From the NCBI GenBank assembly GCA_040285745.1, contig JAUFOR010000004.1, positions 62,001 through 126,000 of the forward strand: a stretch of 64,000 bases of DNA, given 5' to 3'. Below, one piece after another: positions 3,001 to 50,498 of this stretch. This stretch comes from Barthelona sp. PCE (lineage: Eukaryota). Made by a program: the position numbers and the translations under genes. Under the pieces are notes generated by a model, which was given only the letters and a program-made list of their open reading frames with translations, had not been told where the DNA came from and searched no databases. How positions within the stretch are numbered: position 1 is the stretch's first letter; every line of letters starts with the position of its first letter.

Positions 3001-6000
3001 GGCTGTATTTATATTGAAAAACCTGATGGATTTTTGGAAATTGTTGGTGGTTATGTTGAGAGTCTACACATCTGTAGAGTTGAGAACAATGTTCGCATAT
3101 TCAATATTTCGATGAACGCCTTTGACATTGATCTCTTTGTTGATGGTGAAATCAACGTTGAGAACGTAACTGTTACATCAATTATTATTGATGATGTCAT
3201 GGGTTCAGATTCCAGTCATGATCAGGTTTTCAACATTTTGAACACAACAGTTGATCTCTTAACACTTCCAAAGTCACGTGAGGGTTCCTTCAATATCTAC
3301 GATTCTGATGTTGATAGCGTTGATACTCTTAACTTTATTTTCGGTCACTCTTACAATGACGGTCACTTCCTTAACTGTTTCTCTGGTTATCTGAACCTTA
3401 ATGGTACTGCTATTGAGATTAATCGTGGTGGTATCAACGTCCATAGTGCTTGTTCAGTGCTTTTTAACAACACTGATGTCAGATTATTGAGCAAGGGTGA
3501 TATTGATATTGCTAATGGTTCATTAGTTGAAGGAAGTATCATTGACAACATCTATTGTCAAAACGGTATGCTCCGTTCGAATGACACTACTCTCCTCACA
3601 ATCAACACAACTGATATCAGAGGTTGTGCAGTTGGTGGTGTCAATGTAGATATTCCATATCTTGATATTCGTGAGGGTGGTTTGTTTGGTACATTAAATC
3701 TTACTAATTCGTTCCACATTCATGGTACTAGCGCGATTCACATTTCAAATGATACATTCATCACTCTTGACAATGGTTTATGGGAAGATGGTAAGGTATT
3801 CATTGGTGATAGCGCATACATTCACTGTCCTGTTGATTGTGCATTCGTTATGGATAGACCTGCTGGTATCTTTGAAGAAGACGATGTATCCAATTATGCT
3901 CATATGCAAATTGATGGCACTCTGAATATCACAGCTCGCTCATCCACTGAGTTTGAAATTGTGCTCAACAACACAGGTTCAATCTATCAAGACAATGGTA
4001 TTTGGGAGATTTATCGTGGTGGTGTTACTTACAATAATGGTTCAATTATTTTAACAGATAACAATGCGGAATTCCGTTTGAAGTCTCCTTATCTGTTTGA
4101 TGAAGAGTCTTATCTTTACTCAAATGGTACAATTGGACTTCGTCAGTTTAACGCCAACCTCACTTCTTATGGTTATGTTCACGTGTGCGACCCTGGTGAA
4201 ATTTACATTAAGGGTGGTGCTTTACGTCTACACGGTGCTGTAGTTGAGTGCATTGACACTGAATACTATGATGGTGACATTGATTTCGAACCGACCACTG
4301 AGGGTTGTGATATTCTTTTCCCTTGGGTTGAGGACCTTGCAGATTTTGATGATATTCGTGAAATTTGCCAAATTTGGATTGGTGAGCTTCGTGATGACGG
4401 TGAAGTCACATTCTACAATGGTGATACAGAGTTATTCCATATTGAATGGATTAAGAAGGGTCCCATTTACTTTGGTATGGGTAGTTATATTGGTTCTATG
4501 CATGTCGATCGTATGGATGAAAGTACATGGATTCTTGGTAATGGTACGATCGTTGATGAAATCACAACAATGGTTTTAACTGAAAGTGTCTCACAATTTA
4601 TTGTGAAGGAAAACGCAACAGTCAACGCAACCAACGCAAGCTTTACTGTTACAGATGGTGTTGTTTTATTCGATACCAACGCTCAAGTTGTTGCTGATTG
4701 TCTTCATCTGATTCTTGATGGTTCCGCTGAATTTATAATTAAAGAAAACGGTGCACAAGATCCCATAAGAATTTGTAGTGCTGTGCTTAGTGATACAGCT
4801 TCTATCCAAATTTATGATGGTGCTAATGTGATAATTGAAGAGCTTGTCATGAACGATGAATCAAGTATCGATTCAACAACACTCGTCAATGTTACAGGTA
4901 CGGTAGATATTAGCGGTGGAAGTATTGGTAATGATACTGTGCTTGGATTTGATGGTTCTTCAACTGTTGGTTTCAGTTTGAGTGATCCATTCACATTTGG
5001 TTTTGGATCCTATGTTGAATTCCACAGTAACGTAACTGTTGAAGGTAATTCTCCTCTCATTTTCAGTGATGATGCTAGAGTTTTCAACTACTACAGATTT
5101 ACAATCGAGGAAGAGAAAGCTTTCGTTATGGAAGCTGTTGGTGTTGGTACTGGTAAGTTTACTAACAAACGTGGCGGTATATTTACGTTCAAGGGTAGTG
5201 ATAACCCTTCGAAATTCGATATTATCAGATGTAAGATCCGCAATGATGGTGAACTGAACATTGATGCTAATGGAACTACAGGTGGTTTATTCCTTGAAGG
5301 AGAACTTACAAATGATTGGATATTCAATATGGACTCCAATCTGCAGTTAACTGTTCGTAAGGATGGTTCTCTCATTAACAACAAGAATATGATTGATACA
5401 AACACAACGTTCAGTCAGGCAGTTATCTCAATCAAGGGTGACTCTTCACATACACCTTCTTTTATTCAGAATGACGTCCTCACCACTAAGGCAAATCTAT
5501 TTGCGTCAGATGCAACGGTTAACTTCACCGAATCGTCTGTCTCACAAGGTATTTCAAAGGCGTATATCCTGGATGAAGCAACTCTCGATATTTCTGGCCA
5601 ATATATTACCCCACTCAACCTTCATGACACATCTGGTGTTGTCAGTGTTGTTAACAACGGTAATATCAAGGTTGGTTATGTTCAGATCACTGATAATGAT
5701 GGATTGTTCCAAACTACTTCCGGTGGTACAGCTATTTGTGATGATTTCACTAGTTTTGTTCTTGATCACGGTAAGGTTCAATTGGGTGATTTTTCATCTG
5801 TTGAGTTACGTGGTTCAATCGAGTTGAATAACGATGGTGAGTTTTTCATTGGTCGGATTAACAATGACAGTATACTTCGTCCTAATGAAATCACACTTAA
5901 TGATGAAACAAGTTTCTCTGCTAACTGTGAACCTTCAATCATTGTTACTTTGAATGAAGTAACACAAAACGATGACAGTAACTTCGGTGGAACATCTGCT

Positions 6001-21438: not shown

Positions 21439-24400
21439 TTATTCAGTGGTGTTTTCCTCATGATCAGGGCGAATGATTGGGCGAATGTAAGGCTCGATAT
21501 CCTTCTTGGATGCAATCCTCTTGGTGCCGATGCGGAAAGCTGAAACCGAATCACGAGACATACTGGTGTAATAAGTACCTGCGCGAATCATATCCAAGAA
21601 TCTGGTCAAAACATTGAAATATGAAGTGTCTGAGACACGAGCACGTAAAAATGTCTCAAGAGGGATGCGATCGATATAAGAAGAAGGATATAGATAAGTA
21701 CCACTGTAACCAATACCACCATCAGTGAACACCTTAAGCATAATCGTCATCCATCTTAGCTTTAAGCATGACTTCAAATCAGAGTCCTCGATCAATTTCA
21801 TGGCCTTGCACATATTATCTACCGTCTCAGAACGAACTTCAACGTACATGAGTGCACCTAAGAGAGAAAAGTGATTGCCGTTGTAAGAAATGTGAGGTAG
21901 CTTCAATTCGCCACTGTAAAGCTTGAGAACTGCCTTAATGGCGGGAATGAGCTCATGGTAACCAGCGATAAATGTCTTCCACCAAACCTCTCCGATATGG
22001 AAGCCATCGATCTCGTTGTAACACTCAAGCATGAAAGTAGAGATGGTTCTGAAGAACTCCCGTGTGAGAGCAATATCGTCCTTCAGATAGTACTTGCACA
22101 CATCAGTAAGCTTCTGAGCAACCAAATTGTTGTTCAAGAAAGGCACATACAACTGGTGGGTGCGATCGCGGGCCTTTGCCAGGTGCTGCTCGATAGAAAC
22201 AGTGAGGTTCTCGCGGAAAGTGTCCTTGAGAGGCTCGAGCATCTTAAGGAGGCGCTTGCTATCACGACGCTGAGAGAAGACGAGGCAGATCATCTCGGTG
22301 AAGCGGCTGAAGTAGCGGAAGATGGGCTGGGCGTACTGCTCACAGAACTGCAGGAAGCGGTCAGGGAGCGATACATTAACAAGAGAGTAACCTTGGTTGT
22401 GAAGAGAGGCATTAATGATGGAATTAAGGACGATCTCGACGTTCTTGTAGTCGGTACGAGTGTCACGGAACTCCTTCTCCATGATGGGGCAGAGCCAGTG
22501 GCCAACAACACAATTGAAGGCATCGTTCCAGTGCTCGGTGCCGATCTTGTTGTAGAGGAAGGTGATGAACTCAACGATGCGCTCGACAATCACAACAACA
22601 CCGTAGAAACGGCGTGCAGCGAGACCGACGAGCTGCCAGTACTCACTCTCGAAAACGGAATCGCTCCATCCCTTGTTGAGCATGAGAGAGATCTGATCAA
22701 CGGCGAAGTTGAGCAGAACAAGACGGACATCGACTGCCATGGTCTCCTGGTCCCACATAACCTTTAGGAAGGCGGCGGGGTTAACGCCAGCGTTCTGACG
22801 GGATAGTGCCTGGACAACACCGATAATCATCTTCATGGGAGTGATGCCGAAGCGCCACTCATCGGAATATGCGAGAGCAATGAGATCATCGAAAAGACGC
22901 TTCTGCTCCTCGACAGACGTGTGCATGACATATCCCTCGAGAAGAGTGCGTACGAAAGGAGCAGACTTGGGGATGGTGAGGGCAGTGAGAAGCGCGGAGC
23001 GGGCCATCTCAGCGAAAGAGAGATCGGTGAGGCACATAATGCGGCCGAGGATGAAGATGACGCGCTTGAAGAGTTCAAGGATGTTTGAGTTGGTGAAAGC
23101 ACGGTTGGAAAGGTGTGTGAAGCCAATGATGCGCTTGACGAACTCTTCATTGAGGAAGGTTGTGGAGAAGCGAAGGGAGAACTGCAGAGTACGGAGCATG
23201 TTCTTAATCTCGTTCAGGTCCAGGGTGCTGTTGATCAGATCAGAGATGCTCTCGACGAGGTCACGGCGGGACTGAAGCATCTCCTTGTACTCAGCTTCGG
23301 CCTCCTCATCCTCGATGTCGCGGTCGCTCATCTCGGAGATATCGCGGTCGAGCTCCTCGAGATCGGCGTAAAGACCGAACAGCTTGTCGAGGGGATCAAA
23401 GTAATAAGCAATCTCATCGCGAACCTGGATAGCAAGGGAATCGAAGCGCTCAACGTTAGGGATGTCATAAACGGAGCTGATTCTGTACATCTTGCTAACG
23501 AAGTCACTACGAGTAATGATACGGCTGTTCGTTAAGGGGTCTTGGTAACCCTTGACAACCTTGTGGCGGGCCTTGGGGCGAGCAATGGGATAAACCTTGT
23601 CTGGTCCGGGCATATCAGTGGCGTCGACACAGAGCATCCTGAGGGCAGCGAAGGTGCTGCCGTTACAGAGGGAAATGTACTGGTCAAGAGAGTATTGACG
23701 CACAAGTTCTTGGTTATCAAAGCACAACTGTTTCTCCGCATAGTTCCAAACACGGCGGATGTTAAGCATATGAATTAGACTATTGAAGATGCGCTGAAGA
23801 ATAGACATATCAGTGCTGGCTGTGGCTTGACGAGCAAGAAGGCCATCAATGACGTAGCGATAGCATTCTTCAGACACGTAGTTGACGATCTTGTTGTACT
23901 TATCGTGACGCTCATGAGTGCTGTTGTTGCGCTTATCATCGAGGTTATAAATAGTGTAACATTTACCACGCTCGAACCTGTGAGGTAAGATAACGTAAGG
24001 TAGTTGTGTGTAAAATTTGTGATGGTTGATAAGAGCGTATCTGATGAAAGTGTCTGCGGACTCATTGCGCTTCTCAACCTTCTCATCGTAGATATCAGCA
24101 ATCTCCATCATCTTGTCAAAGAAGTGCTTCATGTGCTCAAGAGGGAAGAAATTAGGAGCAATCTTGTGGTTGACCATAAACTGGTACAAATTCATTGACT
24201 TGTAGATGTTGTGCATGATCTTATGATCAATGTTGGCGATGAAGTACTCGGCGAGGTTGTCGACTGTCTCAGGCTTGTAGAAGAAGGGACTGTGATCATA
24301 ATCGATATTGATGTAACAGTAAGAATCCTCAGGAACACGACCGATAATGTGAGGAGTAACGGCCTTGAAGGTATCCCACTCTGTCCAGTCGCCGGTGCAG

Positions 24401-25854
24401 ATGAAACGCTGGAGCAAACGGTAAAGCGTAGCGTGGGCATCGGTGTGGAGAAGTCCGTTCTTGCCAATGAAAAGGTACAAAATGTGGGAAACCTCATAGG
24501 TTTTACCAGAAAGACGAACTGTGTATTCGGGTTTGGGGGTGGTGGCACACCCAAGAGTGACAAAATTCAAGATGGTGCCAACCTGGTTGCTGAGATGCTC
24601 AGGCTTATAGTAACGGTCCCAATACTCTTCCTTCTCAAGCTGAACATACAGGTGGTTGGCCAATGCATGTCTGAACTTATCAAGACCTGGGAAATAGCTG
24701 TGAGGATTCTTTGATGAGGCAAAGTATTCACTGATAGTATACCATTCACTAATAACGTTACCTGTTTCCTTGTTGTAAGTATCCTTGACAGCAGTGTATT
24801 TGTACAAATTGGATTCGTCGAAATAACACTCAAGCAAACGCATGAAAAGACTGCCAGGTTCGGTTGAGAAAGCAATACCCCTCTCACGATACTGCCTTCT
24901 GAAAGAAGATATTGACATAAAGCTGCGATATTGAGCTGATTTGAATGCCTTAACAGCAATATCATCACCGTGATACTTGATGAAGTAAGGCATCATCTCC
25001 CAGTAGGTTGAATAAGTGTAGACCTCAGCCTTGAAGAGCTCATCAATGAAAAATTTCGGCTCTTCGACTGCGAATTTGTGCATAATACGATTTAAAAGTT
25101 GTGATTTATGCATCTTGGATGAACTGTAAAGATATGCAACAGAGTGAATGTTTTGTCCAGATTTAATGCGGTCCAAAAAGATCTCACGAGACTTTTCAGG
25201 GGAATTAAGCACGTAGTTGTTGAAGCGGTAATGATTATGGGTTGAACCATAAAGCTGACTATCGTTATTCTTGTGCATAGCATCAGTATAAATATCATAG
25301 ACAATTTCATAGAAACGAGGCTGAATGAACTCAAAGGGAATACTCTTGCTGACGTTGAACTTATCCAGAATGTACTTCTTGGCAACGGTGGGTGAAGCGG
25401 CAATGTAGAGAGTACGCAGCTGCTTACCGCTCAAGAGCTGGTTCCATGCAGGATCGCTGATAATTGCATCAGCAATGGCTGTGTAGCGTCCGTTCTTACC
25501 GTAACGAGACAACTGAGAGAGGTATCTTGCTCGAAAAGCAACAGGTGCTGTTGAGAATACCTCAAGCAGGTTCTCCTTGGTGATCATGTGGTGAAAGAAC
25601 TTGGGCTGTGTCTTGAACAGATTGGCAATGTACTTTCTGACCCAGCTGGTCTTTGTGCTGGCTGACATTCCAATCTGGTAGACTTCGTCGTAACGTTTCT
25701 TGGCGATGCTGAGATCCAAGTATATGCGCTGGGCCTTGAGAGACGGGATGTCTGAGAATGTAATAGCATCTAAATCAATAGCGGAACTAAAGAGTTGACT
25801 GAAAAGCTCGTTATAGCGTAAATCAGCAGAGATGAGGGTTAAAAAGTTATCCAT
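21439..25854 (-). CDS. Large uncharacterised, probably alpha-helical (HEAT-like) protein, ~1,471 aa
   Basis: Long uninterrupted ORF; first ATG (MDNFLTLISAD) at 25854 after an A-rich leader; strong third-position C bias in the central part. No catalytic motif recognised. Confidence 0.8.
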   Translation of the reverse strand: MDNFLTLISADLRYNELFSQLFSSAIDLDAITFSDIPSLKAQRIYLDLSIAKKRYDEVYQIGMSASTKTSWVRKYIANLFKTQPKFFHHMITKENLLEVFSTAPVAFRARYLSQLSRYGKNGRYTAIADAIISDPAWNQLLSGKQLRTLYIAASPTVAKKYILDKFNVSKSIPFEFIQPRFYEIVYDIYTDAMHKNNDSQLYGSTHNHYRFNNYVLNSPEKSREIFLDRIKSGQNIHSVAYLYSSSKMHKSQLLNRIMHKFAVEEPKFFIDELFKAEVYTYSTYWEMMPYFIKYHGDDIAVKAFKSAQYRSFMSISSFRRQYRERGIAFSTEPGSLFMRLLECYFDESNLYKYTAVKDTYNKETGNVISEWYTISEYFASSKNPHSYFPGLDKFRHALANHLYVQLEKEEYWDRYYKPEHLSNQVGTILNFVTLGCATTPKPEYTVRLSGKTYEVSHILYLFIGKNGLLHTDAHATLYRLLQRFICTGDWTEWDTFKAVTPHIIGRVPEDSYCYINIDYDHSPFFYKPETVDNLAEYFIANIDHKIMHNIYKSMNLYQFMVNHKIAPNFFPLEHMKHFFDKMMEIADIYDEKVEKRNESADTFIRYALINHHKFYTQLPYVILPHRFERGKCYTIYNLDDKRNNSTHERHDKYNKIVNYVSEECYRYVIDGLLARQATASTDMSILQRIFNSLIHMLNIRRVWNYAEKQLCFDNQELVRQYSLDQYISLCNGSTFAALRMLCVDATDMPGPDKVYPIARPKARHKVVKGYQDPLTNSRIITRSDFVSKMYRISSVYDIPNVERFDSLAIQVRDEIAYYFDPLDKLFGLYADLEELDRDISEMSDRDIEDEEAEAEYKEMLQSRRDLVESISDLINSTLDLNEIKNMLRTLQFSLRFSTTFLNEEFVKRIIGFTHLSNRAFTNSNILELFKRVIFILGRIMCLTDLSFAEMARSALLTALTIPKSAPFVRTLLEGYVMHTSVEEQKRLFDDLIALAYSDEWRFGITPMKMIIGVVQALSRQNAGVNPAAFLKVMWDQETMAVDVRLVLLNFAVDQISLMLNKGWSDSVFESEYWQLVGLAARRFYGVVVIVERIVEFITFLYNKIGTEHWNDAFNCVVGHWLCPIMEKEFRDTRTDYKNVEIVLNSIINASLHNQGYSLVNVSLPDRFLQFCEQYAQPIFRYFSRFTEMICLVFSQRRDSKRLLKMLEPLKDTFRENLTVSIEQHLAKARDRTHQLYVPFLNNNLVAQKLTDVCKYYLKDDIALTREFFRTISTFMLECYNEIDGFHIGEVWWKTFIAGYHELIPAIKAVLKLYSGELKLPHISYNGNHFSLLGALMYVEVRSETVDNMCKAMKLIEDSDLKSCLKLRWMTIMLKVFTDGGIGYSGTYLYPSSYIDRIPLETFLRARVSDTSYFNVLTRFLDMIRAGTYYTSMSRDSVSAFRIGTKRIASKKDIEPYIRPIIRPDHEENTTE

Positions 25855-40544: not shown

Positions 40545-41756
40545 ATGGTACACATCACAATAGAACTACTACGAAAAAGAAGTGAGCATAATGACAAAGT
40601 TTTGTATAATCTGAAGGAAATAACACTACATCAACAACATTTACATTGCATTGACAAGGTATTGCAGCGCATGTGCCCTGAACTTGAATGGCTATACCTC
40701 CAAAGCAACACTATCCGAAAATTCGAAAATCTAAGAAGGTTAAAGAGGCTTAAAGTCCTCAACATAAGCGTAAACCAGCTTGTCCGCTTTGAGGGTATGC
40801 AAACTCTTGAGTCACTTGAGAAACTAGACGTAACAGCCAATCTAATTGATGATCTCCTCAGTGCAGAGACTCTTTTCAACTGTTACAACCTGTCAGATAT
40901 TACAATGATAGGAAACCCGTGCACAAAATATGAGGATTACAGACTTTATCTGATCAAAACTCTCCCACAGTTATTGGTTATAGACGGTGTTGATATCACA
41001 CCACCTGAACGTCAGATCGCCCAAACACGCGGCGAAGATATTGTAGCGAACATCGTCCGAGCACAAGAAGAACGTATAGCTGCCGGAGTGTTTGGAAGTC
41101 GACCTGCATGGATGGATGAAGAGTATGAGGAAGATATTGGATACGTTGAACCTGAGGGTCGAAAAATGGGTGGCGACGATATCATGGATAAGGGTGAGAA
41201 AGAGGTCCGTCGAATGAAGAGTGAAACGCGTCAGCGTATTCGAAGCAATCCAAACGCACAATGTAACGAAGGTAAACTTGATTTTAGAATGTTTGAATGC
41301 GATGAAACGGGTGAAGAATGTCTGCAAGGTTCACACTTTATGTTGGAGGTACACACTGGTAAATACCTGAGCATGAATTTTGTAGATTGCGAAGTATATT
41401 CCGATCGCGTAGAAGTGGAGGTCAAGGGTCATCTGTTGCGACTTCTATACGGTGAGGAAGTAGACGCTGCCGGAGCCAATGCAACAATGTTGAGCGCCGT
41501 TGGAAAGCTGCGTATCCTTGCTCCCAAGAAAAATGATGTCAAAGTTGTCAGTGTTCGAGCATCTATAGCTCCTAAAAGAGTTCCATCGAACTCAACAACT
41601 GTGAAGCGCGTTAAAAAGCATGCTGATGAAGTGCTTGATTTTGAGAAAGAATACATGCAAACTATTGAAACAAAAGGTGAGCTCGATTCTTTCAGTGATG
41701 TGGATTCTGATTTGGACTTGGAAACTGACGATGAGGAAATGCCTGGTTTAATATAA
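40545..41756 (+). CDS. DNAAF11: Dynein axonemal assembly factor 11 (LRRC6/TilB)
   Basis: MVHITIELLRKRSEHN..LKEITLHQQ N-terminus, LRRs, LRRcap GNPC..YRLYLIKTLPQL, QCNEGKLDF, CS-like domain and terminal EEMPGLI are characteristic of LRRC6. Confidence 0.92.
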   Translation: MVHITIELLRKRSEHNDKVLYNLKEITLHQQHLHCIDKVLQRMCPELEWLYLQSNTIRKFENLRRLKRLKVLNISVNQLVRFEGMQTLESLEKLDVTANLIDDLLSAETLFNCYNLSDITMIGNPCTKYEDYRLYLIKTLPQLLVIDGVDITPPERQIAQTRGEDIVANIVRAQEERIAAGVFGSRPAWMDEEYEEDIGYVEPEGRKMGGDDIMDKGEKEVRRMKSETRQRIRSNPNAQCNEGKLDFRMFECDETGEECLQGSHFMLEVHTGKYLSMNFVDCEVYSDRVEVEVKGHLLRLLYGEEVDAAGANATMLSAVGKLRILAPKKNDVKVVSVRASIAPKRVPSNSTTVKRVKKHADEVLDFEKEYMQTIETKGELDSFSDVDSDLDLETDDEEMPGLI

Positions 41757-41782: not shown

Positions 41783-41790
41783 CAAAATTC
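41783..41790. repeat. Target-site duplication, left copy (CAAAATTC); right copy at 46289-46296
   Basis: Exact 8-bp direct repeat abutting both TIRs; 8 bp is the hAT TSD length. Confidence 0.93.
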
Positions 41791-41845
41791 CAGACATGGA
41801 GCAAGCAGACTTCACACTAGGGGGGTGGAAAGGTTAATGGTATGA
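41791..41845 (+). repeat. Left terminal inverted repeat (55 bp)
   Basis: CAGACATGGAGCAAGCAGACTTCACACTAGGGGGGTGGAAAGGTTAATGGTATGA. Confidence 0.95.
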
Positions 41846-42242
41846 TTCACCATAGTTCCTTCCCTTATATGCAGCGGTAGTAAAGCCTGAAACTTTGATG
41901 ATTTACAGAGATCTAAGTTTGGGTATGGTGCCACGAAGGGGTCACCGAGGTCGGTGTGCGGAAGTCCACAAATCCGACTCTCGATACTAATAAATAGGTA
42001 TAAAATATACAAAAGAAAATAGGAAACCTTGATATAAGTGAACTAAGCAAATTCAACCCTGCTTCGTGTTCCATTCTCTAATTGTTCATCAATCTGGGAT
42101 CTTGAGGATCGGTTGCATGATCAACCACCCCACACTGTGGGTATTGTAAAAACTATAACAAACAAAGAGATCTTGTGGAATCCAGTAGCGCATATCTCAA
42201 TTTTTTACTTTTTTCACAGGTAGTCTCAACGATATCTTTTTA

Positions 42243-45200
42243 ATGTCCAAAGAAGGTACTTTTCAATCGTTCAATGTGAGTATTCCAATGGATAAAATAA
42301 GACTAAGTGATCCAAAAGAACAAAATAATGAAAGTTATCATGTCCGTGTTCACTTATACTCTAATGTGTGTCTTGAAGGTGGCTTACGTTCAGATTACCA
42401 TGAAGTAGGCTGTTTGGAAATACAAAACTGTGTTCTACCAAACTCTAATGATTTTAATGCTTATAAGTACGCGATATTAACTCACGAAGAGCTTTTAGCT
42501 ACTTATAACAATATTAAGGGGCCAAGACTGGCTCCTATATCACGTGATATGGTTTCAAAAGCTTCTTGTCATGTAATTGGCTTGTGTATCTTCACAGGTA
42601 AACACTATCTTCGCAGGATACTCAACGATGAACATATCAAGATCATCTGGAGTGCTTTGAAGAACAATTGGATAAAACCTGAGTTCGAAAAGGATGATTT
42701 TATACGCATGATTCGAGCAAGTAATATCAAGATTACGGACGCTGAACTGGCAAAAATGTTGAATGATGTGTATATTACGACTCCATCAAAACGCAGTTTT
42801 ATAACAGAACGTAGTTTAAAGTATGTGACTGATAATGCTAACACCAAATGTCAAGGAAATATTCATTATAACAAGGACACGTGTGAGTGGACTTGTACAG
42901 ACATTGGAATAATCCAGGATTCAATATTTCCACTTCGTTTCCAACAATTAACACTTCAAGAACATCAAATCACTAAGATGAAGGTATCACTTGCTAGAGT
43001 TAACGATGCTAGGGGCTTTGCTTTGCCATTTGTATTTTTAGTTATGGATAAAAGTTTGAAAAACATTAGATCTGAATACAGTCCAGGTTCTGAGAGGGCT
43101 TTCAGGGATTACACAACATATTACGGTGAGGTTGTACACCCTTACATTCTGGAAACCATTTTTAACTCTGCTTATGTTCAAGCAGCAAACAATTCAGAAA
43201 ACGTAACTCTTTTTATGGAATTTGATCTGTCAAGCGATGGATACAGTGCTGCACTTATTATGTTGAAGGTACCAACCGATCTGGAACTTGTTTGGGTCGA
43301 GCATCCATTTTTGGAGAGCTCTACGAAAATGTACACAAAAGATCATCTAATAATCACACTAGAGCAATATTTGGATTCTTTAAAAGGTAAGTTTATCATC
43401 TTTGATGTATTTACAACCGAGTTCACTGTTTCCCACGCAACTGAAGTTGTCATTAATCCTCTTGATTACCCAGATTTCACTGTGCGTAATTTTGAAGTAC
43501 CTGAAATCGACAAGGATGCGAAATACAAGCGTGCTCAGGATCTGTGCGAACAGTTTTTGTCTCGGCTTAAAAAATACAAAATCATCCAGTCATATTCAAT
43601 CATCGAGAGGAAAAACAGGGATCGCTGGTGCTTAGAAGATGTTATTATTGACATGGGTGATTCTGAAGTTAAGATTGTTGTTGGAACTGATAATGGCACG
43701 CCAGAACAGCTCGCCTTTCAAAAGATATGTGATGCATGCTCGTCAATATCACGAGTTCCATGTATTTGTCATGTTTTAAATAAGATTATGGCAAAAACCA
43801 GTGGGTTTGAGTTCTTTCCTAGTCATATTCAGCATCAATCCTTCATTCCTTATTTAGATAGGTTTAATTTGTTGAGAGTCTCCAATGAAACCGTCACTAT
43901 GGATATCATCGATCAAGTTTCACAAGAATCAACTGTTGAAGGGTTGTCTAAGAAGCTAGATTTATCAAATTTATTCACCAACCGTACCATTTCACGTTCT
44001 GCTGCTGCTCGACTTAACAGCGTTGTTTCTCTCCATGAAACTCATCCAATCTTTGCACTTTCTGAACCTGCAGCAGAGAATGAGAGTGTTACAGATGATA
44101 TTTCTGGTGCAACTATCAACAATTTAACAGAAGAATGGATCGAGTCATTTGTTCATTCTGACACTGAAGGTGGTTTGATTGCTGACGATAAGCTCATGTT
44201 TACCTTTGCATATACATCATTTCACGAATGTCAACACCTTCAAAACTTGTTAAGACAGAGCAATGCTTGCCTGTTAGGCGTTGATTTGACCTTAAGTAAC
44301 TCTCTTTCAAATGATGCCTATCGTTTCAATGTACTTGAGCATTATACTGAATTCCTTGATCATCTTGCCATGATTTCTTTAGAGAAATATGCAAAAATGT
44401 TGGATGATCAGCAGAAATCTCTCGCCAATTTTTCAAAGATACAGACGCTGTTAACAGTTGATACTATGCGTGTGTTTTATAAATACCATACAGTCTGGTG
44501 TGAAGTAACGGGAAGATCCATATCTCTTTCGAATGTTCGTTGGGATACACTGGAATGGATTTATGATGTATTGTGTGGTGGACTGTACATGGACATCCCC
44601 AAGATACTATTTTTACCTGAGGGAACAGAAACAATTCCTGATGATTTTGCAATAACATGGTCTCATTTTAAGATCACTAAAAAGTTTCTTCGTCTGAAGT
44701 ACCACGAAGTTAAGGATTTGGCGATTAAGCGGATGTTAAAGAGCAATAATACTGTTTGTGACGAGGATCATTATCGGCATTTTCTTTCTCCTTTTTATGA
44801 GGCCATGAAGGATGGGAATAAGCAGCCTCATGGATTTTCTCTGGGCCCTGATATGTGGGTATTGGCAAGGAATTATTTTTCTACTTATTCTCGTATGATC
44901 TTCATTCAACGTATGAGCAGTAAGAATGATTTTTCAGTTTTACAATCATATTTCCAAGTTTCCATACTTTTACTTGAATTGCGAAAGTGGCGCTCAGATT
45001 TCAAGGTTAGAAATGCAACAAGCCTTGCTACAATATACCATGATGGTCTTTTTGAGTATGTTCGTCATTATTTTTGCAAATTCCTCATCATGCCCGAACC
45101 TTTGGTGGCTTTTCTTCTCTCAGATTTAAGCACTGTTGAGCTCCAGGATCATAATATGGAGGTTAAAGATATCACAAATGATAAACCCCGAAAGAGTTGT

Positions 45201-45986
45201 TTGAAGGAAGAATTATACGAACTGTATGTTGATGCAAAGATACCCAATATTAACAGAGCAGGTTTAGTTGAGGTTACAGAGAAGGAACTTGTAAGACTAA
45301 AAGGTATGATGGTTTTTTCATTTTTACCCACCAAGTTCAAGCGCTGTGGAAGTGAATGTCCCGCATTACATCTTATTAGTGATCACGTTTATGTTAATAT
45401 GGCAAAAGATTTTAATGATCCTTTGTTGTATAGAGGGTTAGTGGGGTATATAATTTCTATTCTTTGTACCAATTACTATTTAGACTTTTCACCATCCAAT
45501 GAAGATCGAAAGAAGGTCGTAATGCGCTATACACCAGAAGTGGAACCCCAAACAATTGTATTACCATTATCGACAGGCTTTCTCAGTCCTAGTCGCCGTT
45601 CTTCCAATCGTATGGAGAGTGAACTATCTCCAAGTGCCCAAAGTGTGCATGAGCCCCCTTTAAGTGCTCAAAGGGTGGCCGATGAGTTCGATTTCAATGA
45701 TACAGGTATTAGAGAAAGAGATGTTCGTGCAGCACTTGTTCATGGCCACACCCACGAATCTGTGAAGGGTTTACCCGGTTTCCGAGCTATAATTAGACAA
45801 CACAGCAGTGCATCTGCCAGCAATTCTGGAGTTGAGCGTGAATTTTCTATGTTAAAAAGACTGCATTCCAAGAATCAAACCAAATTATCAACTCATATAC
45901 GTTTTAATTGGTTTTTATTAAATGAAGCTTCTGCAGCCCCAAGGATTACGTATGATGAACTGAAAGAAATAGTGAAGACTATCTAA
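42243..45986 (+). CDS. hAT-family DDE transposase, unusually long (1,247 aa)
   Basis: Candidate D1 FIIFDVFT (D codon 43404), D2 VGTDNG (43689), CxxH PCICHVLN (43761), RW motif NVRWDT (44538), and the catalytic E in the hAT C-terminal motif SASNSGVEREFS (45834). The ORF lies between the TIRs. Confidence 0.88.
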   Translation: MSKEGTFQSFNVSIPMDKIRLSDPKEQNNESYHVRVHLYSNVCLEGGLRSDYHEVGCLEIQNCVLPNSNDFNAYKYAILTHEELLATYNNIKGPRLAPISRDMVSKASCHVIGLCIFTGKHYLRRILNDEHIKIIWSALKNNWIKPEFEKDDFIRMIRASNIKITDAELAKMLNDVYITTPSKRSFITERSLKYVTDNANTKCQGNIHYNKDTCEWTCTDIGIIQDSIFPLRFQQLTLQEHQITKMKVSLARVNDARGFALPFVFLVMDKSLKNIRSEYSPGSERAFRDYTTYYGEVVHPYILETIFNSAYVQAANNSENVTLFMEFDLSSDGYSAALIMLKVPTDLELVWVEHPFLESSTKMYTKDHLIITLEQYLDSLKGKFIIFDVFTTEFTVSHATEVVINPLDYPDFTVRNFEVPEIDKDAKYKRAQDLCEQFLSRLKKYKIIQSYSIIERKNRDRWCLEDVIIDMGDSEVKIVVGTDNGTPEQLAFQKICDACSSISRVPCICHVLNKIMAKTSGFEFFPSHIQHQSFIPYLDRFNLLRVSNETVTMDIIDQVSQESTVEGLSKKLDLSNLFTNRTISRSAAARLNSVVSLHETHPIFALSEPAAENESVTDDISGATINNLTEEWIESFVHSDTEGGLIADDKLMFTFAYTSFHECQHLQNLLRQSNACLLGVDLTLSNSLSNDAYRFNVLEHYTEFLDHLAMISLEKYAKMLDDQQKSLANFSKIQTLLTVDTMRVFYKYHTVWCEVTGRSISLSNVRWDTLEWIYDVLCGGLYMDIPKILFLPEGTETIPDDFAITWSHFKITKKFLRLKYHEVKDLAIKRMLKSNNTVCDEDHYRHFLSPFYEAMKDGNKQPHGFSLGPDMWVLARNYFSTYSRMIFIQRMSSKNDFSVLQSYFQVSILLLELRKWRSDFKVRNATSLATIYHDGLFEYVRHYFCKFLIMPEPLVAFLLSDLSTVELQDHNMEVKDITNDKPRKSCLKEELYELYVDAKIPNINRAGLVEVTEKELVRLKGMMVFSFLPTKFKRCGSECPALHLISDHVYVNMAKDFNDPLLYRGLVGYIISILCTNYYLDFSPSNEDRKKVVMRYTPEVEPQTIVLPLSTGFLSPSRRSSNRMESELSPSAQSVHEPPLSAQRVADEFDFNDTGIRERDVRAALVHGHTHESVKGLPGFRAIIRQHSSASASNSGVEREFSMLKRLHSKNQTKLSTHIRFNWFLLNEASAAPRITYDELKEIVKTI

Positions 45987-46233
45987 TTTCAATTTTTTCA
46001 TTTTTATGATGGAGAAACATTTTTGTGGATTTATTGTAGGGTATCTGGTTCACAAGGTACATGAAAGCTTTCACATGTATTTCTGAGCACTCTAATATTG
46101 CGATATGTTTGTAAATTTGTACTGGAAAATTTCGGTAGTAGAAAGCGGAACAACTGCTGCCAACCAACTACTGCCAAATTTTTTTTCTTTTATGCTTTTA
46201 CAATGACAACGTTAATAGCTTGGATCCGTCTCC

Positions 46234-46288
46234 TCATGCCATTAACCTTTCCACCCCCCTAGTGTACAGTCTGCTTGCTCCATGTCTA
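46234..46288 (-). repeat. Right terminal inverted repeat (55 bp)
   Basis: Reverse complement reads TAGACATGGAGCAAGCAGACTGTACACTAGGGGGGTGGAAAGGTTAATGGCATGA; 4 mismatches to the left TIR. Confidence 0.95.
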
Positions 46289-46319
46289 CAAAATTCCTGT
46301 TTTTCAATTTTCCATTGTT

Positions 46320-49300
46320 ATGGCCTTAATTTTGCTTAAATTTCTTCTTTTTACACTCTTTGTTACATTTTCACAAGGAAAAAGCTGTTATTTTGATGAA
46401 GTGATCAGCTTATCACCTGGTCTCAACACATTTGCAAAACTTCGGGATGACTGCACCATAACACTTAAGAATCTGAAGGATGAAGGACATTATTCTTTAG
46501 CTTTTGTTGAAAGCAATATCACAGTAGCTTTTTTTGAGAATGAAAACCATCCATTATTTAATAAGATATTGCTTGAAAATTCGGATGTTAAATTCATCCC
46601 TGTGCTCGATGCTCAGCGAATGTCTCTCATAAAAGCAGATAAAATCAGCATATCAAATTCTGTAGTTGCAGATCTTAATATTAAAGCAATAAGCTCAACA
46701 TCTAATGTTACAATGTATAATTCGACCACGCTTGGTGAAGTGAAATACTATAATTTTTTGAATGGTTGTTTTAATAACATAACAAATGATGGTCGAGATC
46801 TTAAGTTTAAAACACAAGTTACAAATTCCTTTGTTTCACTTTCTTCATCAAAATTTAGCTTCAACTCTTGGACCGAATTACATTCGGATACTATTAATGT
46901 GACTGATCTGGTCCAATCAGACCTAAGGTTATATTTCGCCAACGCAATATACTTAAATCTTCACGAGATTATAACTGATCTTTCCTTTCATATATACACT
47001 GATAGAATAGATTACATTCATCTTTTTAATTGTAATAACAGCAAATTATATGTTCGTGGATCAACGAGAAAAAATCATGGTTTTAAGATGATTGAATCGG
47101 ATTTTCAAAGTATTGAGTTGTCTAAAATGTATGTGTCGTATCTACTATTACATGATATGAGATTTTCACACTTAAATTTGAACGGTACTACAATAGGATT
47201 GCTGCAAGAATCATCAATAGACCATTTTTACATCAGTAATGTAGATTTTCAAAATCAATTTTTACATTTTTATGATACCAGTGATAAAATGTCTATATTA
47301 AACTTTGTATTGAAAGATTGCATCATCCATGATATTGATTACACAAAGAGCAAACCTCGAGAAGATGTTGGTAATTATCTGATGCCAAACGCTAACAAAA
47401 TTCAATTAACAAATTCAACCTTTAGAAATATAACACTAACAAATGATCTATACATGAAAAAACAACTGACCATGCAAGCAATTATTTCTGATTGCACCTT
47501 TTTTGATTGTGATTTTCTGTTGAAGGTTGATAATGGGGTAGATATCATAAACAGTGGATTGCATAATGTTAGAATTAAGGATAAAATCACATTAATAAGA
47601 TTTCAAGACAGTGTTTTCGATCACATAGCCTTTACCAAAATGTCTACGTTCTTATACAAGCACTACTCATTTGTCTCCAACTGTTCGTTTTTTAATATTG
47701 CAAACACTTTAAGTTTGTTTTATATTCAGGAACATTCTAGTGCATATGCAGTGCAAGCTCAAAAATTAGTGTTCCGTAACATTGATATCAATGGATTCAT
47801 TTTTGCAGTTAGCCGTCACAGTCCTGGATTTGTAGAAGCCTCTCTTGAAGATATCAGTATTTCAAGATTTAGTGGAATTGGTATTTGGAATATCGAGAGT
47901 GATGTTCAATTACCTCTATTCAGTGTGAATAACCTTATTGTTACCCATTCTATAATGAATTCAGTATTTTTACTGTCTTCAGTTAACAGCTCACCAATGA
48001 GTATCTCAATGACAAACGTTTCGATTGACGTTTCTGCAGATGTATTGTTAACTGCACAGGAACATGTCAAAGCAATTAATCTGACGAATATTTCAGTTAT
48101 TTTTCAGAAGCAAAGTGTATTGCTTCTGCTTTCAACCGAAGAAAAATATGCTTCAGTTTCACTTTTCAATACCACAGTTACCATGGACAGTAATTCTGTT
48201 CTCATATTGGAGGATTCTTGGCATGCAAGCTTTGAGTACTCGTTCCGATATGTAACAGTGCGTGACACATATATAGGCGATGGTTTCCAATCGTTAATGT
48301 ATTTAAAAGAAGCCATCTTTGAAACAATTGAGAACAGTTTGTTCGAAACTCAACGCAGAATTGCTTCTGTGAGCTATCTTTTCCTAACAGAACAAAGTCA
48401 GTCCATTGTTGATCGGGTTCAGGCACTGCACTGCATTGGATGTGATGATTCACGCGAGATTCTGTATGAAGCATACACAAGACGGGTTGGCATCAACACA
48501 CTTCTTGAAGGACACGTGTCGGTTGTTTTTGGTGCACACAGTAGGCAGGCCATTGATCAACCGTGGGAGATCGTGTACATGACACGTCCTTCGTTCTCTT
48601 TAAATCATACGAAACTGTGGAATGTTCCAACTGCGCTGCTCAGTATTGACATCGATCTTATCGATTATCCAGGTTTGATGATTTCGATTTTTGACGCAAA
48701 CGGGCTTGTGACCCGATCTTTGACAGAGAATACATACTGTAAGGCTGGATACGGCTTTGATAAATTCGATCGGACTTGTATTGGATGTTCATCAGGGCAT
48801 TATCAGTTCCAACTTTCTAATGAGCCGCAATGCTTCACGGCTGAAAACTTGCAGAGCGACTTCCTACGTGTTCGGTTATCGGGTACTATGTACTCAGTTG
48901 ACCCAGGAAATTTCATTGTTGAGAGCGATAACACGACGTACCTCATGGACTGTATGAACTCTTTTTGCACCGGTCTTCTTGTAGAAGCAGGCCTCAGTGG
49001 AAAATCATTTTACAACATGCATGTTCCCAGTGCAGAATTTGATGTGTACAGATATAGCGACAAATTCATTTATGAAGTTTCAGGATGTGCGTTAGGCCAT
49101 CATGGGACAGCGTGTACCGAATGCGTGAATCGTTTGATGATCAAGGATGATATGTATCAGGGATTTTACAACTTCTTAACACAGGGGTGTATTCTTGTTC
49201 GTGAAAAGCACCGTAATCTCGCCTATTTTGTACTTCCGATCCAACTAATACTGCTGACTCTGGGAATCAAGTACTACCATGTGCTGCAGCGTATCCCATG

Positions 49301-50498
49301 GCTTTCCATTGTTGGTAAACGGGATGATAACGATCTGCACATTACTGATTTTGAGGTATTCAGTCTCATGTCCATCGTAAAGGACTATATGCTCGTTCTC
49401 TGGCCGCTTGTGTTCAATACAGATTCGTTCGACACTATTATACAATCGAAAACAGGAATCCGTGCCTTTTTTTCGCTGCTGATTAATCCTCTTGCAACAG
49501 TTTGTATGGCAATCGACTTTAAATGGGGAAGTAGCCTTGTTTTGACAACTTTTATATCAGTATTTTACATGGTTGGTTTCTTTTATTCGTTCCTAAACTA
49601 TCTCACAAGCAAAAAAGCTACTCGTTTTCTTTTTATTCTTTTGCCAGCGTTTGTTTTGGTTTTCGTTTCACGAGAATCACTTTGGGAAATGTTAATATGG
49701 GGTGCTTTTGCAACAGTTTTTCTCATCATCCTTGCAACAGACTACCAATTAAACGCACTTTCTTCTTTTTTCTTGTTGATTGCACCGTTTGCATTCTCAC
49801 TGTTATGGTGGGACTCTCGTGGAGGACTGACTTATACATGTAGTATTATGTTTGTTGTGATACTTATGTTTGTGATTGTAAGGAAGCCCAAAGTCAGCGT
49901 CATGACTGGTCTTAATTACTATTTCCTCCCGTATATTTTCAAAGGAATCCTGCTTGTTGCAGTGCCCGTCAAGTTTAGTGACATTTATGGCCTTAGTAAT
50001 CTTAGTGGCTATCATTCAATTGTGGACTTTGAAAATCCTTACAACAGTTACAGAGTTGTTCTTATCGTATTAATGATACTTTTTTGCTTCATGAGCTATT
50101 CCGTTGCTCGTAAGCTCACAAAAACTGGTGATGCAAGCAAAACTGGTTATGATCTCTTTATATTCATCCTAGTAATAGGCAGATCTCTGTATACGTTCCT
50201 GTCATATATAGTGCATGATTACCTACCGAATTATATATTTCTGTTGAGTCTTCTTACCTATGTGCAGTTTAAAAAACCCTTCAAGACAATCAATAACCTG
50301 ATGCTGAGAATATCATTTTTTGTTACCTTTTTCAGCGCTGTTTCGGGCTTTTTCTTTAAAATTGACAACCTTCAAATCTCACTTATTGTAGTATTACCTT
50401 GTCTTCTGGTAGCTTTGAATGGTATTCTGATGAAATCGTCCATTGACATCAAGAGTAGTTTTGTCGAGAACAGTGCCTTTCTTTTGGAAGATCTTTAA
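46320..50498 (+). CDS. Surface membrane protein: signal peptide, beta-helix-like ectodomain, Cys-rich region, multi-pass TM C-terminus (~1,392 aa)
   Basis: MALILLKFLLFTLFVTFSQG signal peptide at ATG 46320; I/N/S/F-rich repeats; CKAGYG..CIGCSSGHYQ and GCALGHHGTACTEC; more than 8 hydrophobic segments in the last ~430 aa. Confidence 0.8.
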   Translation: MALILLKFLLFTLFVTFSQGKSCYFDEVISLSPGLNTFAKLRDDCTITLKNLKDEGHYSLAFVESNITVAFFENENHPLFNKILLENSDVKFIPVLDAQRMSLIKADKISISNSVVADLNIKAISSTSNVTMYNSTTLGEVKYYNFLNGCFNNITNDGRDLKFKTQVTNSFVSLSSSKFSFNSWTELHSDTINVTDLVQSDLRLYFANAIYLNLHEIITDLSFHIYTDRIDYIHLFNCNNSKLYVRGSTRKNHGFKMIESDFQSIELSKMYVSYLLLHDMRFSHLNLNGTTIGLLQESSIDHFYISNVDFQNQFLHFYDTSDKMSILNFVLKDCIIHDIDYTKSKPREDVGNYLMPNANKIQLTNSTFRNITLTNDLYMKKQLTMQAIISDCTFFDCDFLLKVDNGVDIINSGLHNVRIKDKITLIRFQDSVFDHIAFTKMSTFLYKHYSFVSNCSFFNIANTLSLFYIQEHSSAYAVQAQKLVFRNIDINGFIFAVSRHSPGFVEASLEDISISRFSGIGIWNIESDVQLPLFSVNNLIVTHSIMNSVFLLSSVNSSPMSISMTNVSIDVSADVLLTAQEHVKAINLTNISVIFQKQSVLLLLSTEEKYASVSLFNTTVTMDSNSVLILEDSWHASFEYSFRYVTVRDTYIGDGFQSLMYLKEAIFETIENSLFETQRRIASVSYLFLTEQSQSIVDRVQALHCIGCDDSREILYEAYTRRVGINTLLEGHVSVVFGAHSRQAIDQPWEIVYMTRPSFSLNHTKLWNVPTALLSIDIDLIDYPGLMISIFDANGLVTRSLTENTYCKAGYGFDKFDRTCIGCSSGHYQFQLSNEPQCFTAENLQSDFLRVRLSGTMYSVDPGNFIVESDNTTYLMDCMNSFCTGLLVEAGLSGKSFYNMHVPSAEFDVYRYSDKFIYEVSGCALGHHGTACTECVNRLMIKDDMYQGFYNFLTQGCILVREKHRNLAYFVLPIQLILLTLGIKYYHVLQRIPWLSIVGKRDDNDLHITDFEVFSLMSIVKDYMLVLWPLVFNTDSFDTIIQSKTGIRAFFSLLINPLATVCMAIDFKWGSSLVLTTFISVFYMVGFFYSFLNYLTSKKATRFLFILLPAFVLVFVSRESLWEMLIWGAFATVFLIILATDYQLNALSSFFLLIAPFAFSLLWWDSRGGLTYTCSIMFVVILMFVIVRKPKVSVMTGLNYYFLPYIFKGILLVAVPVKFSDIYGLSNLSGYHSIVDFENPYNSYRVVLIVLMILFCFMSYSVARKLTKTGDASKTGYDLFIFILVIGRSLYTFLSYIVHDYLPNYIFLLSLLTYVQFKKPFKTINNLMLRISFFVTFFSAVSGFFFKIDNLQISLIVVLPCLLVALNGILMKSSIDIKSSFVENSAFLLEDL

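Follow-up and report, generated by a model that had tools for sequence, protein, structure and literature searches.

What kind of element encodes a transposase about twice as long as that of Hermes, and how would such a protein find the ends of its own DNA? These questions are raised by a 64,000-nt stretch of the Barthelona sp. PCE genome (contig JAUFOR010000004.1, positions 62,001 to 126,000, assembly GCA_040285745.1), called the window here, in which a stop-free open reading frame (ORF) at 42243-45986 on the forward strand encodes a protein of 1,247 aa. Coordinates are positions in the window, and element anatomy was read from the window copy unless another copy is named. The ORF lies within a transposon of 4,498 bp (41791-46288) that has terminal inverted repeats (TIRs) of 55 bp together with an exact 8-bp target duplication, CAAAATTC, present with the same letters at 41783-41790 and 46289-46296. 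We regard it as quite probable that the element is a cut-and-paste DNA transposon that moved recently, works like a hAT element and belongs to a deep lineage so far seen in one organism only. A preliminary description of this DNA had proposed a hAT-like transposase about twice the size of Hermes without a BED zinc finger, and the conserved motifs, the length (1,247 versus 612 aa) and the lack of a conserved Cys pair agree with that proposal; several of its details had to be changed.

A recently mobile family

The anatomy of the element, its copies, their duplications and the conserved residues are direct observations. Searched against its own genome (10.2 Mb), the window protein matched 37 of 37 scored candidates. 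Ten copies keep full-length ORFs of 1,110-1,251 aa with the same motif spacing, and they are spread over six deep lineages (17-42% protein identity) in a quick family tree that holds family members only and carries long-branch warnings. Among 20 copies with two ends, 13 are flanked by an exact 8-bp duplication, two by an 8-bp duplication with one mismatch, one by an exact 9-bp duplication and four by none; a scan for 8-bp duplications only and a scan allowing 4-14 bp agreed on the same copies. One exact 8-bp duplication is expected by chance at ~5e-5, and the 13 exact duplications together with the 37 genome matches exclude chance as the source of the family. The family must have moved recently, because several copies have arms without a single mismatch over 117-133 bp, and there are derivatives of 1.3-1.7 kb with internal deletions.

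Retention of introns, fusion with a neighbouring gene or faulty assembly could make the great length of the protein an artefact, and several copies are indeed frameshifted. However, stop-free ORFs of 1,110-1,251 aa recur in ten copies of all six lineages, and the expansions are internal, in frame and conserved at the protein level across the six lineages, which rules out introns or a fused gene as the cause of the length. An artefact of any of these kinds is thus highly improbable.

Some further features of the copies were seen on the way. Two lineage-B copies with 117-bp identical arms (L011 and L041) interrupt host ORFs at codons 63 and 128, which suggests that these insertions are very recent or heterozygous. 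The four two-ended copies that have recognisable ends and no duplication are L004, L037, L031 and L033, two of them with unlike end types; they are possibly recombinants that mark rearrangements. In lineages A, B, C and E many ORFs remain open at 3-14% protein divergence despite a ratio of non-synonymous to synonymous substitution rates (dN/dS) near 1 among recent copies; stops seem rarer than neutral decay would yield. A single-copy relative of 676 aa (P0013, at L100, G000:C6:230742-232769; hhalign 98%) has no D1, CxxH, RW or C-terminal E and no flanking TIR pair, and by its sequence it is a candidate for a domesticated, catalytically dead derivative.

The catalytic core

Six lineage representatives share 44 invariant columns, including D328, T482-D483, C507, H510, W767, E1198, F1201 and S1202. 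The first catalytic aspartate (D1) had been proposed at about residue 388. Our data move it to D328 (43224-43226), which ends strand 1 in the AlphaFold model of residues 1-530 and is D in 16 of 17 covering rows, the exception being a broken copy with G. D388 was rejected: it lies in the middle of strand 3, and 5 of 16 aligned rows spanning it have K or L instead. In the same model the second catalytic aspartate, D483 (43689-43691, in GTDNG), comes after strand 4. It is followed by the C507xxH510 motif (43761-43772) and by R766-W767 (44538-44543), the counterpart of Hermes R318-W319, whose W is invariant in all six lineages. The catalytic glutamate, E1198 (45834-45836), stands in ASNSGVEREFS, whose E, F and S are shared by all 15 rows compared. 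The PF05699 profile matched none of the 21 family rows and nothing over the cut-off in the own genome, but the motif ASNxxVERxFS is visible 40-50 aa from the C-terminus, and we take it to resemble the C-terminal motif of hAT transposases. The model has the strand order of an RNase H fold, and the triad D328, D483 and E1198 is interrupted by a helical insertion domain. All these features lie on the forward strand. Two intervals given previously, about 259 aa from CxxH to RW and about 432 aa from RW to the catalytic E, were confirmed, with 260 residues from C507 to W767 and 431 from W767 to E1198.

Placement among transposase superfamilies

The order of conserved motifs is that of Hermes, a member of the Ac group (PDB 8edg, 8sjd): D, D, CxxH, RW and E, with a helical insertion domain and an 8-bp duplication leaning to nTnnnnAn. 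The triad in a modelled RNase H fold with such an insertion domain holds for six lineages, CxxH follows the second D, W767 lies in the insertion domain, and 15 of the 16 duplications found are 8 bp long. A VIA-align search of 48,161 chains ranked Hermes first for the model of residues 1-530 (Z 4.8, 110 aligned residues, rmsd 4.0; 277-487 against Hermes 140-263) and third for the model of residues 48-1247 (Z 7.8, 217 aligned residues, rmsd 4.9; against Hermes 247-567), the latter being the longest alignment among the 50 rows listed. Such Z values prove little alone; the useful part is that Hermes leads the transposases for both halves of the modelled protein, collinearly. Language-model look-alikes (0.84-0.88; 9 of the 10 best named matches in one family or clan) belong, among the families listed, to hAT-type ones, and DUF659 (PF04937) weakly matches 4 of 21 family rows over the stretch from strand 4 through D2 to CxxH (E 0.009-0.1, the best below the cut-off). 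The look-alikes are a lead only, and the DUF659 scores reach at most 15.6 bits against a curated threshold of 34.7, with the window protein itself unmatched. Taken together, it is likely, by analogy, that this transposase works like those of hAT elements.

Several results weigh against this placement. The window protein matches no Pfam family, not even PF05699, and has no sequence match in the PDB. The AlphaFold models are weak (mean pLDDT 49.8 for residues 48-1247 and 47.1 for residues 1-530), all fold Z values fall in the range that the tool calls common, and RIG-I-type helical bundles beat Hermes for the long model (Z 8.4-8.7, 122-129 aligned residues). Foldseek found nothing at E 0.001 with either model. 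The TIRs are not short as in hAT elements (55-133 bp in lineages A-C, and only the 4 bp TAGG in lineage E), and long TIRs with 8-10-bp duplications are a trait of Mutator-like elements (MULE/MuDR). One duplication is 9 bp, not 8, and 4 of 20 two-ended copies have none. Matches to RIG-I and Dicer helicase inserts (Z 7-8.7, ~120 aligned residues) were also considered as a hint of RNA binding and were set aside, because the same helices align with Hermes.

The long TIRs raise the alternative of an element of the Mutator-like (MULE/IS256) or P-like group. Long TIRs, CxxH, a conserved W and duplications of 8-9 bp are shared with Muta1 and ISCth4, and ISCth4 is among the fold rows. P elements have a THAP domain and a P-type fold. 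In the 21 family rows no SWIM, FLYWCH, THAP or MULE transposase domain matched in Pfam at E up to 1; a SWIM or FLYWCH finger goes with the MULE/MuDR transposase domain. P transposase was not among the fold rows listed, which does not exclude a P-type fold. MULEs have long TIRs with 8-10-bp duplications (PMC5225508), and C/DxxH is common to hAT, MuDR, P, Kolobok and IS256 (PMC3706591). However, Muta1 mixes duplications of 8 and 9 bp with no sequence preference, and MULE transposases of Aedes have only 416-554 aa with FLYWCH or SWIM (PMC5225508), whereas the duplications of our family are nearly fixed at 8 bp and lean to nTnnnnAn. Hermes also scores above ISCth4 (Z 4.8 versus 3.2, on a weak model), and the look-alikes are hAT-type. 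We consider a MULE-like or P-like origin unlikely.

The isolation of the family could suggest that it forms a DDE superfamily of its own within the C/DxxH group, as a sister to hAT. A profile of 21 rows searched against 1.84 billion representatives returned 11 proteins, all annotated 'hypothetical protein [Barthelona sp. PCE]', and word-index searches with the full protein, the RNase H alignment and the C-terminal alignment returned no outside homologue. None of 32 stretches had a homologue in viral contigs, and no reference hAT sequence was returned by the homologue searches. The sole metagenome match (1 of 50 stretches) was a chance peptide in an unrelated bacterial ORF. TIR length and N-terminus also lie outside hAT norms. 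Yet the family agrees with hAT in all conserved motifs, in duplication length and in target lean, and the isolation probably reflects fast evolution of the proteins in this lineage and under-sampling of relatives. A sister superfamily is thus also improbable, if a shade less so than a MULE-like or P-like element. Within a hAT-like placement the element is not filed in any named family, because it has neither short TIRs nor the BED finger, which is typical of hAT transposases and not universal.

Expansions and the N-terminal region

To compare lengths, we take D180, D248, C265 and E572 to be the catalytic and CxxH positions of Hermes. The remaining references, a length of 612 aa, H268 and W319, are published (PMC10368747, PMC4763223). 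The excess over Hermes is 148 residues in the N-terminus, 87 between D1 and D2, 206 from CxxH to W and 178 from W to E. About 200 extra residues had been proposed for each of three regions; this holds for the CxxH-W and W-E intervals, whereas the N-terminal excess is smaller and a fourth expansion, between D1 and D2, had been overlooked.

The expanded regions are of mixed character. Between RNase H strands 2 and 3, an insert of ~40 aa in all six lineages (residues 343-383, 43269-43391), a hairpin and a helix, is modelled fairly well (pLDDT 58-82 in blocks of ten residues). In the expanded CxxH-to-RW segment (43773-44537), residues 521-700 have low confidence (mean pLDDT 29 at 571-700) and 701-765 form long helices. 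The insertion domain (residues 768-1155, 44544-45707) starts with a confident helical bundle (766-970, mean pLDDT 76) and ends in an S/P-rich loop (~1076-1155, mean pLDDT 26) that is probably unfolded. By the charge-hydropathy index, ~605-650 (acidic) and ~1085-1155 are predicted to be unfolded in six of six lineages, and ~100-140 of the extra residues are probably disordered loop. The possibility that the expansions are simply disordered applies to these two stretches, the rest being mostly helical and conserved. Mean identity across the six lineages is 22-42% in windows 551-1100, compared with 27-34% in 301-500 and 14-18% in 51-250. Lineages E and F lack ~60 aa at 780-845, and no known domain was found in any expansion. 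These data suggest that the 635 additional residues do not represent one grafted domain but form four in-place elaborations that are largely helical and retained in the six lineages.

Residues 1-320 (42243-43202) are the fastest-diverging part of the protein. No conserved CxxC..H..H is found in residues 1-330, where C218 is the only invariant Cys among the six lineage representatives and no Pfam family matches; the missing BED finger of the preliminary description is therefore borne out. Residues 1-330 have no look-alike in the Atlas. Residues 1-250 have no fold match on a model that is poor there (pLDDT ~40), and we make no claim of a new fold. A helical stretch covers residues ~250-317; in the model, 277-317 align with Hermes from residue 140, and rows of helix-turn-helix (HTH) or Myb-like folds at Z ~3 for residues 248-300 are a lead only.

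Three-part ends and end recognition

The TIRs of the family range between 4 and 133 bp without gaps, or up to 139 bp with gaps, while the protein stays at 1,110-1,251 aa. TIRs are 55 bp in the window type, 117-133 bp in lineages B and C and in copy L003, and reduced to TAGG in lineage E, where two of four two-ended copies still have a duplication. The long TIRs had been offered as support for a role of the expansions, and this argument is weak, since TIR length does not track protein size.

A different regularity is new. The ends of lineages A, B and C (8, 5 and 5 ends compared) consist of TA(G), a variable spacer of ~40 bp and a conserved inner block: sibling identity is 49-75% at positions 5-40 and rises to 68-94% at positions 41-100. 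Among the eight lineage-A ends the inner block has 81-88% identity and positions 5-40 have 49-63%; at the right end of the window copy this block lies at 46184-46244 (reverse strand, ~45-105 bp from the tip) and is a candidate binding site. All five lineage-B ends have a 40-bp spacer free of indels, and in that lineage the block opens with the palindrome AACTCGC-N5-GCGAGTT. Copy L013 has an exact 8-bp duplication even though just 19 of 37 positions agree between its outer arms. Short subterminal repeat arrays were not seen, no motif being enriched in the first 200 bp of ten ends (1 of 30 tests at 0.02). These three-part ends, as read from sequence, suggest BED-independent recognition at a distance. 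The earlier proposal that the extra modules provide a different end recognition is still a proposal, which now gains indirect support from the conserved inner block 41-100 bp inside the ends and the lack of short-repeat arrays.

A tentative and rather doubtful model can be built on this pattern. In a deep hAT-like branch, a zinc-free module built from the expansions would replace binding of BED fingers to short-repeat arrays and would read one inner motif at a fixed distance of ~40 bp from a TA(G) tip nearly devoid of information. Such a ruler, like that of RAG, would have evolved separately; inner motifs specific for each lineage would keep six co-resident families apart. The heptamer-spacer-nonamer signal of RAG resembles this tip-spacer-inner-motif layout. 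The analogy with RAG1/Transib concerns the ends only: the RAG1 core is a weak fold match (Z 3.6 and 3.1), RAG and Transib have 5-bp duplications and CAC ends whereas our family has 8 bp and TA(G), and no membership is claimed.

Some observations have to be set against this ruler. The samples of ends are small and related, and lineage-E ends have no variable spacer. Exchange of ends could yield a variable outer and conserved inner part without any ruler. Compared with the right end of L003, the window copy has 58% identity in the outer 44 bp, 76% in the next 80 bp, 91% in the untranslated positions 125-300 and 93-95% in the coding region; as identity falls towards the tip, ends have been exchanged or rewritten and have not just drifted. 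Finally, recent copies have a dN/dS of ~0.86 over the whole protein and close to 1 even in the core, values that speak neither for nor against constraint on the expansions.

One rival has a serious chance, somewhat short of even: an ordinary, very divergent large hAT element like Kat1 or Rover, in which loops and helices have accreted neutrally to give the length, and tip and nearby subterminal DNA are read conventionally by a degenerate DNA-binding domain in place of BED. Kat1 has 958 aa, D310, C402/H405, W576 and E895, with BED (PMC4763223), and Rover transposases have 629-1,170 aa with TIRs of 18-20 bp, hAT TIRs being 5-28 bp (PMC4316626). Next to Kat1 and Rover, our double-sized protein is at the edge of the known hAT range, not far outside. 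The rival also fits the two expanded stretches predicted to be unfolded in six of six lineages, the ~60 aa absent from lineages E and F and the 100-200 bp of end DNA commonly needed by hAT elements, and differences of the outer TIRs may stem from end exchange instead of missing function. However, Kat1 and Rover retain the BED finger and TIRs of 18-20 bp. The expanded regions of our family keep 22-42% mean identity against 27-34% in the core, and the spacing between tip and inner block hardly varies. Kat1, Rover and Roamer share with our element a large transposase and 8-bp duplications and differ in having BED, PF05699 and 18-28-bp TIRs, without any sequence link to our family. The intervals of Kat1 are also shorter: 92 versus 179 residues for D1-CxxH, 174 versus 260 for CxxH-W and 319 versus 431 for W-E (PMC4763223).

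Hermes itself has no detectable sequence similarity to our protein, and its TIRs are 17 bp versus 55-133 bp here. Unlike our element, Hermes has a BED finger and arrays of short subterminal repeats, which drive assembly of its active complex; its target preference is nTnnnnAn (PMC10368747). The unusual point of our family is the combination of no BED finger with long three-part ends. Named hAT families are Ac, Buster and Tip (PMC12637253). We found no paper whose title or beginning of the abstract describes this family, in a search that covered sources other than Repbase and subscription journals; in the available part of the paper on Barthelona genomes (PMC11316075), 'transpos' occurs three times and never for these elements.

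Target sites

Target duplications are richer in A/T (79%) than intergenic DNA of the window (70%), and nTnnnnAn is matched at 20 of 30 half-sites (P 0.0004-0.003). Eleven of 15 sites lie outside ORFs of at least 100 aa, although a mere 7% of the window is non-coding. Intergenic targeting is not strict, because two of the 15 sites are 63 and 128 codons inside host ORFs and two others fall in the first 13 codons; the bias needs no explanation beyond selection. Insertion into a tiny intergenic gap had been regarded as special, an argument weakened by the same two deep sites and by the ordinary size of the empty gap, 57 nt, with 5 of the 17 other gaps of the window being shorter. A comparison for reciprocal duplication swaps among 14 unpaired ends gave only two one-mismatch A/T-rich pairs, which were not counted as evidence.

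Dada elements insert inside small-RNA genes and have no TIRs (PMC3706591). Our elements have TIRs, and among three tRNA genes in 24 loci none is interrupted, the nearest lying 95 nt from an end; this comparison covers tRNA genes only. Rfam gave no gathering-level match in the element (best E 0.27), and nothing points to RNA guidance. A tRNA-like stretch that ARAGORN does not call lies just past the stop codon of lineage-F copy L034 (~5400-5480), a copy without recognisable TIRs.

A possible mechanism

By analogy with Hermes and Kat1, D328, D483 and E1198 would hold two metals in the RNase H fold, the transposase would nick at the TA(G) tips, and CxxH with W767 would help to close a hairpin on flanking DNA. 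Insertion would follow with an 8-bp stagger, leaning to A/T-rich nTnnnnAn sites, and deleted copies of 1.3-1.7 kb may move in trans. We are less sure of the recognition step. A zinc-free module is proposed because the BED finger and short-repeat arrays are missing, and its binding to the conserved block 41-100 bp inside each end would most likely give the specificity of lineages, with the outer 40 bp serving mainly as spacer. Candidates for this module are the divergent N-terminal 320 residues, placed first because they vary most between lineages as the inner blocks do, and the enlarged insertion domain. Long perfect TIRs would probably arise when one end is copied onto its partner, and purifying selection combined with the A/T preference would probably account for the intergenic bias.

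The window copy and its neighbourhood

The left TIR of the window copy (41791-41845, forward strand, tip CAGA) matches the right TIR (46234-46288, reverse strand, TAGA from the tip) at 51 of 55 positions. A nested 275-bp insertion (41843-42117, forward strand) without duplication splits the outer left TIR from its inner block in this copy only and is absent from sister copies. The rest of the 5′ end, comprising the inner left end and leader (42118-42242, forward strand), has 99-100% identity to copies L002 and L037.

The 275-bp repeat is dispersed, with ~10 near-full copies elsewhere in the genome. At L044 (G000:C3:956410-962524) it forms split terminal repeats around a long reverse transcriptase ORF (PF00078, E 5e-14), whose C-terminal stretch presumably resembles a tyrosine recombinase; this suggests a DIRS/Ngaro-like retroelement with solo repeats. 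Copies of the repeat also flank paralogous kinase genes of 1,413-1,470 aa at L049 (in direct orientation) and L050 (on the strand opposite to the gene), one kinase having an IBR match, and possibly the repeat has duplicated these genes.

Both host genes next to the element are intact, outside it and on the forward strand: upstream a DNAAF11/LRRC6-like gene (40545-41756; PF23602, LRR_9), downstream a gene for 1,392 aa without a Pfam family (46320-50498). The latter ends similarly to an intron-less ORF of 7,010 aa (157-21189), whose beta-rich body is repetitive and whose C-terminal part has membrane segments, and the two probably belong to a surface-protein family. A 1,471-aa ORF (21439-25854) lies where the G+C content is raised (up to 52% versus ~39%) and is possibly of foreign origin.

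Implications

If the expansions are neutral, this family is a modest addition to the catalogue of transposons. It widens the size and TIR range of the hAT-like class, and it also illustrates that whole transposon families of under-sampled protists escape profile searches; here the named database copies are all 'hypothetical protein'. If our reading of the ends is true, a hAT-like family without BED finger and subterminal repeats would be a second solution for end recognition on the same catalytic core, and the co-resident lineages in the Barthelona genome would be natural swaps of protein and end.

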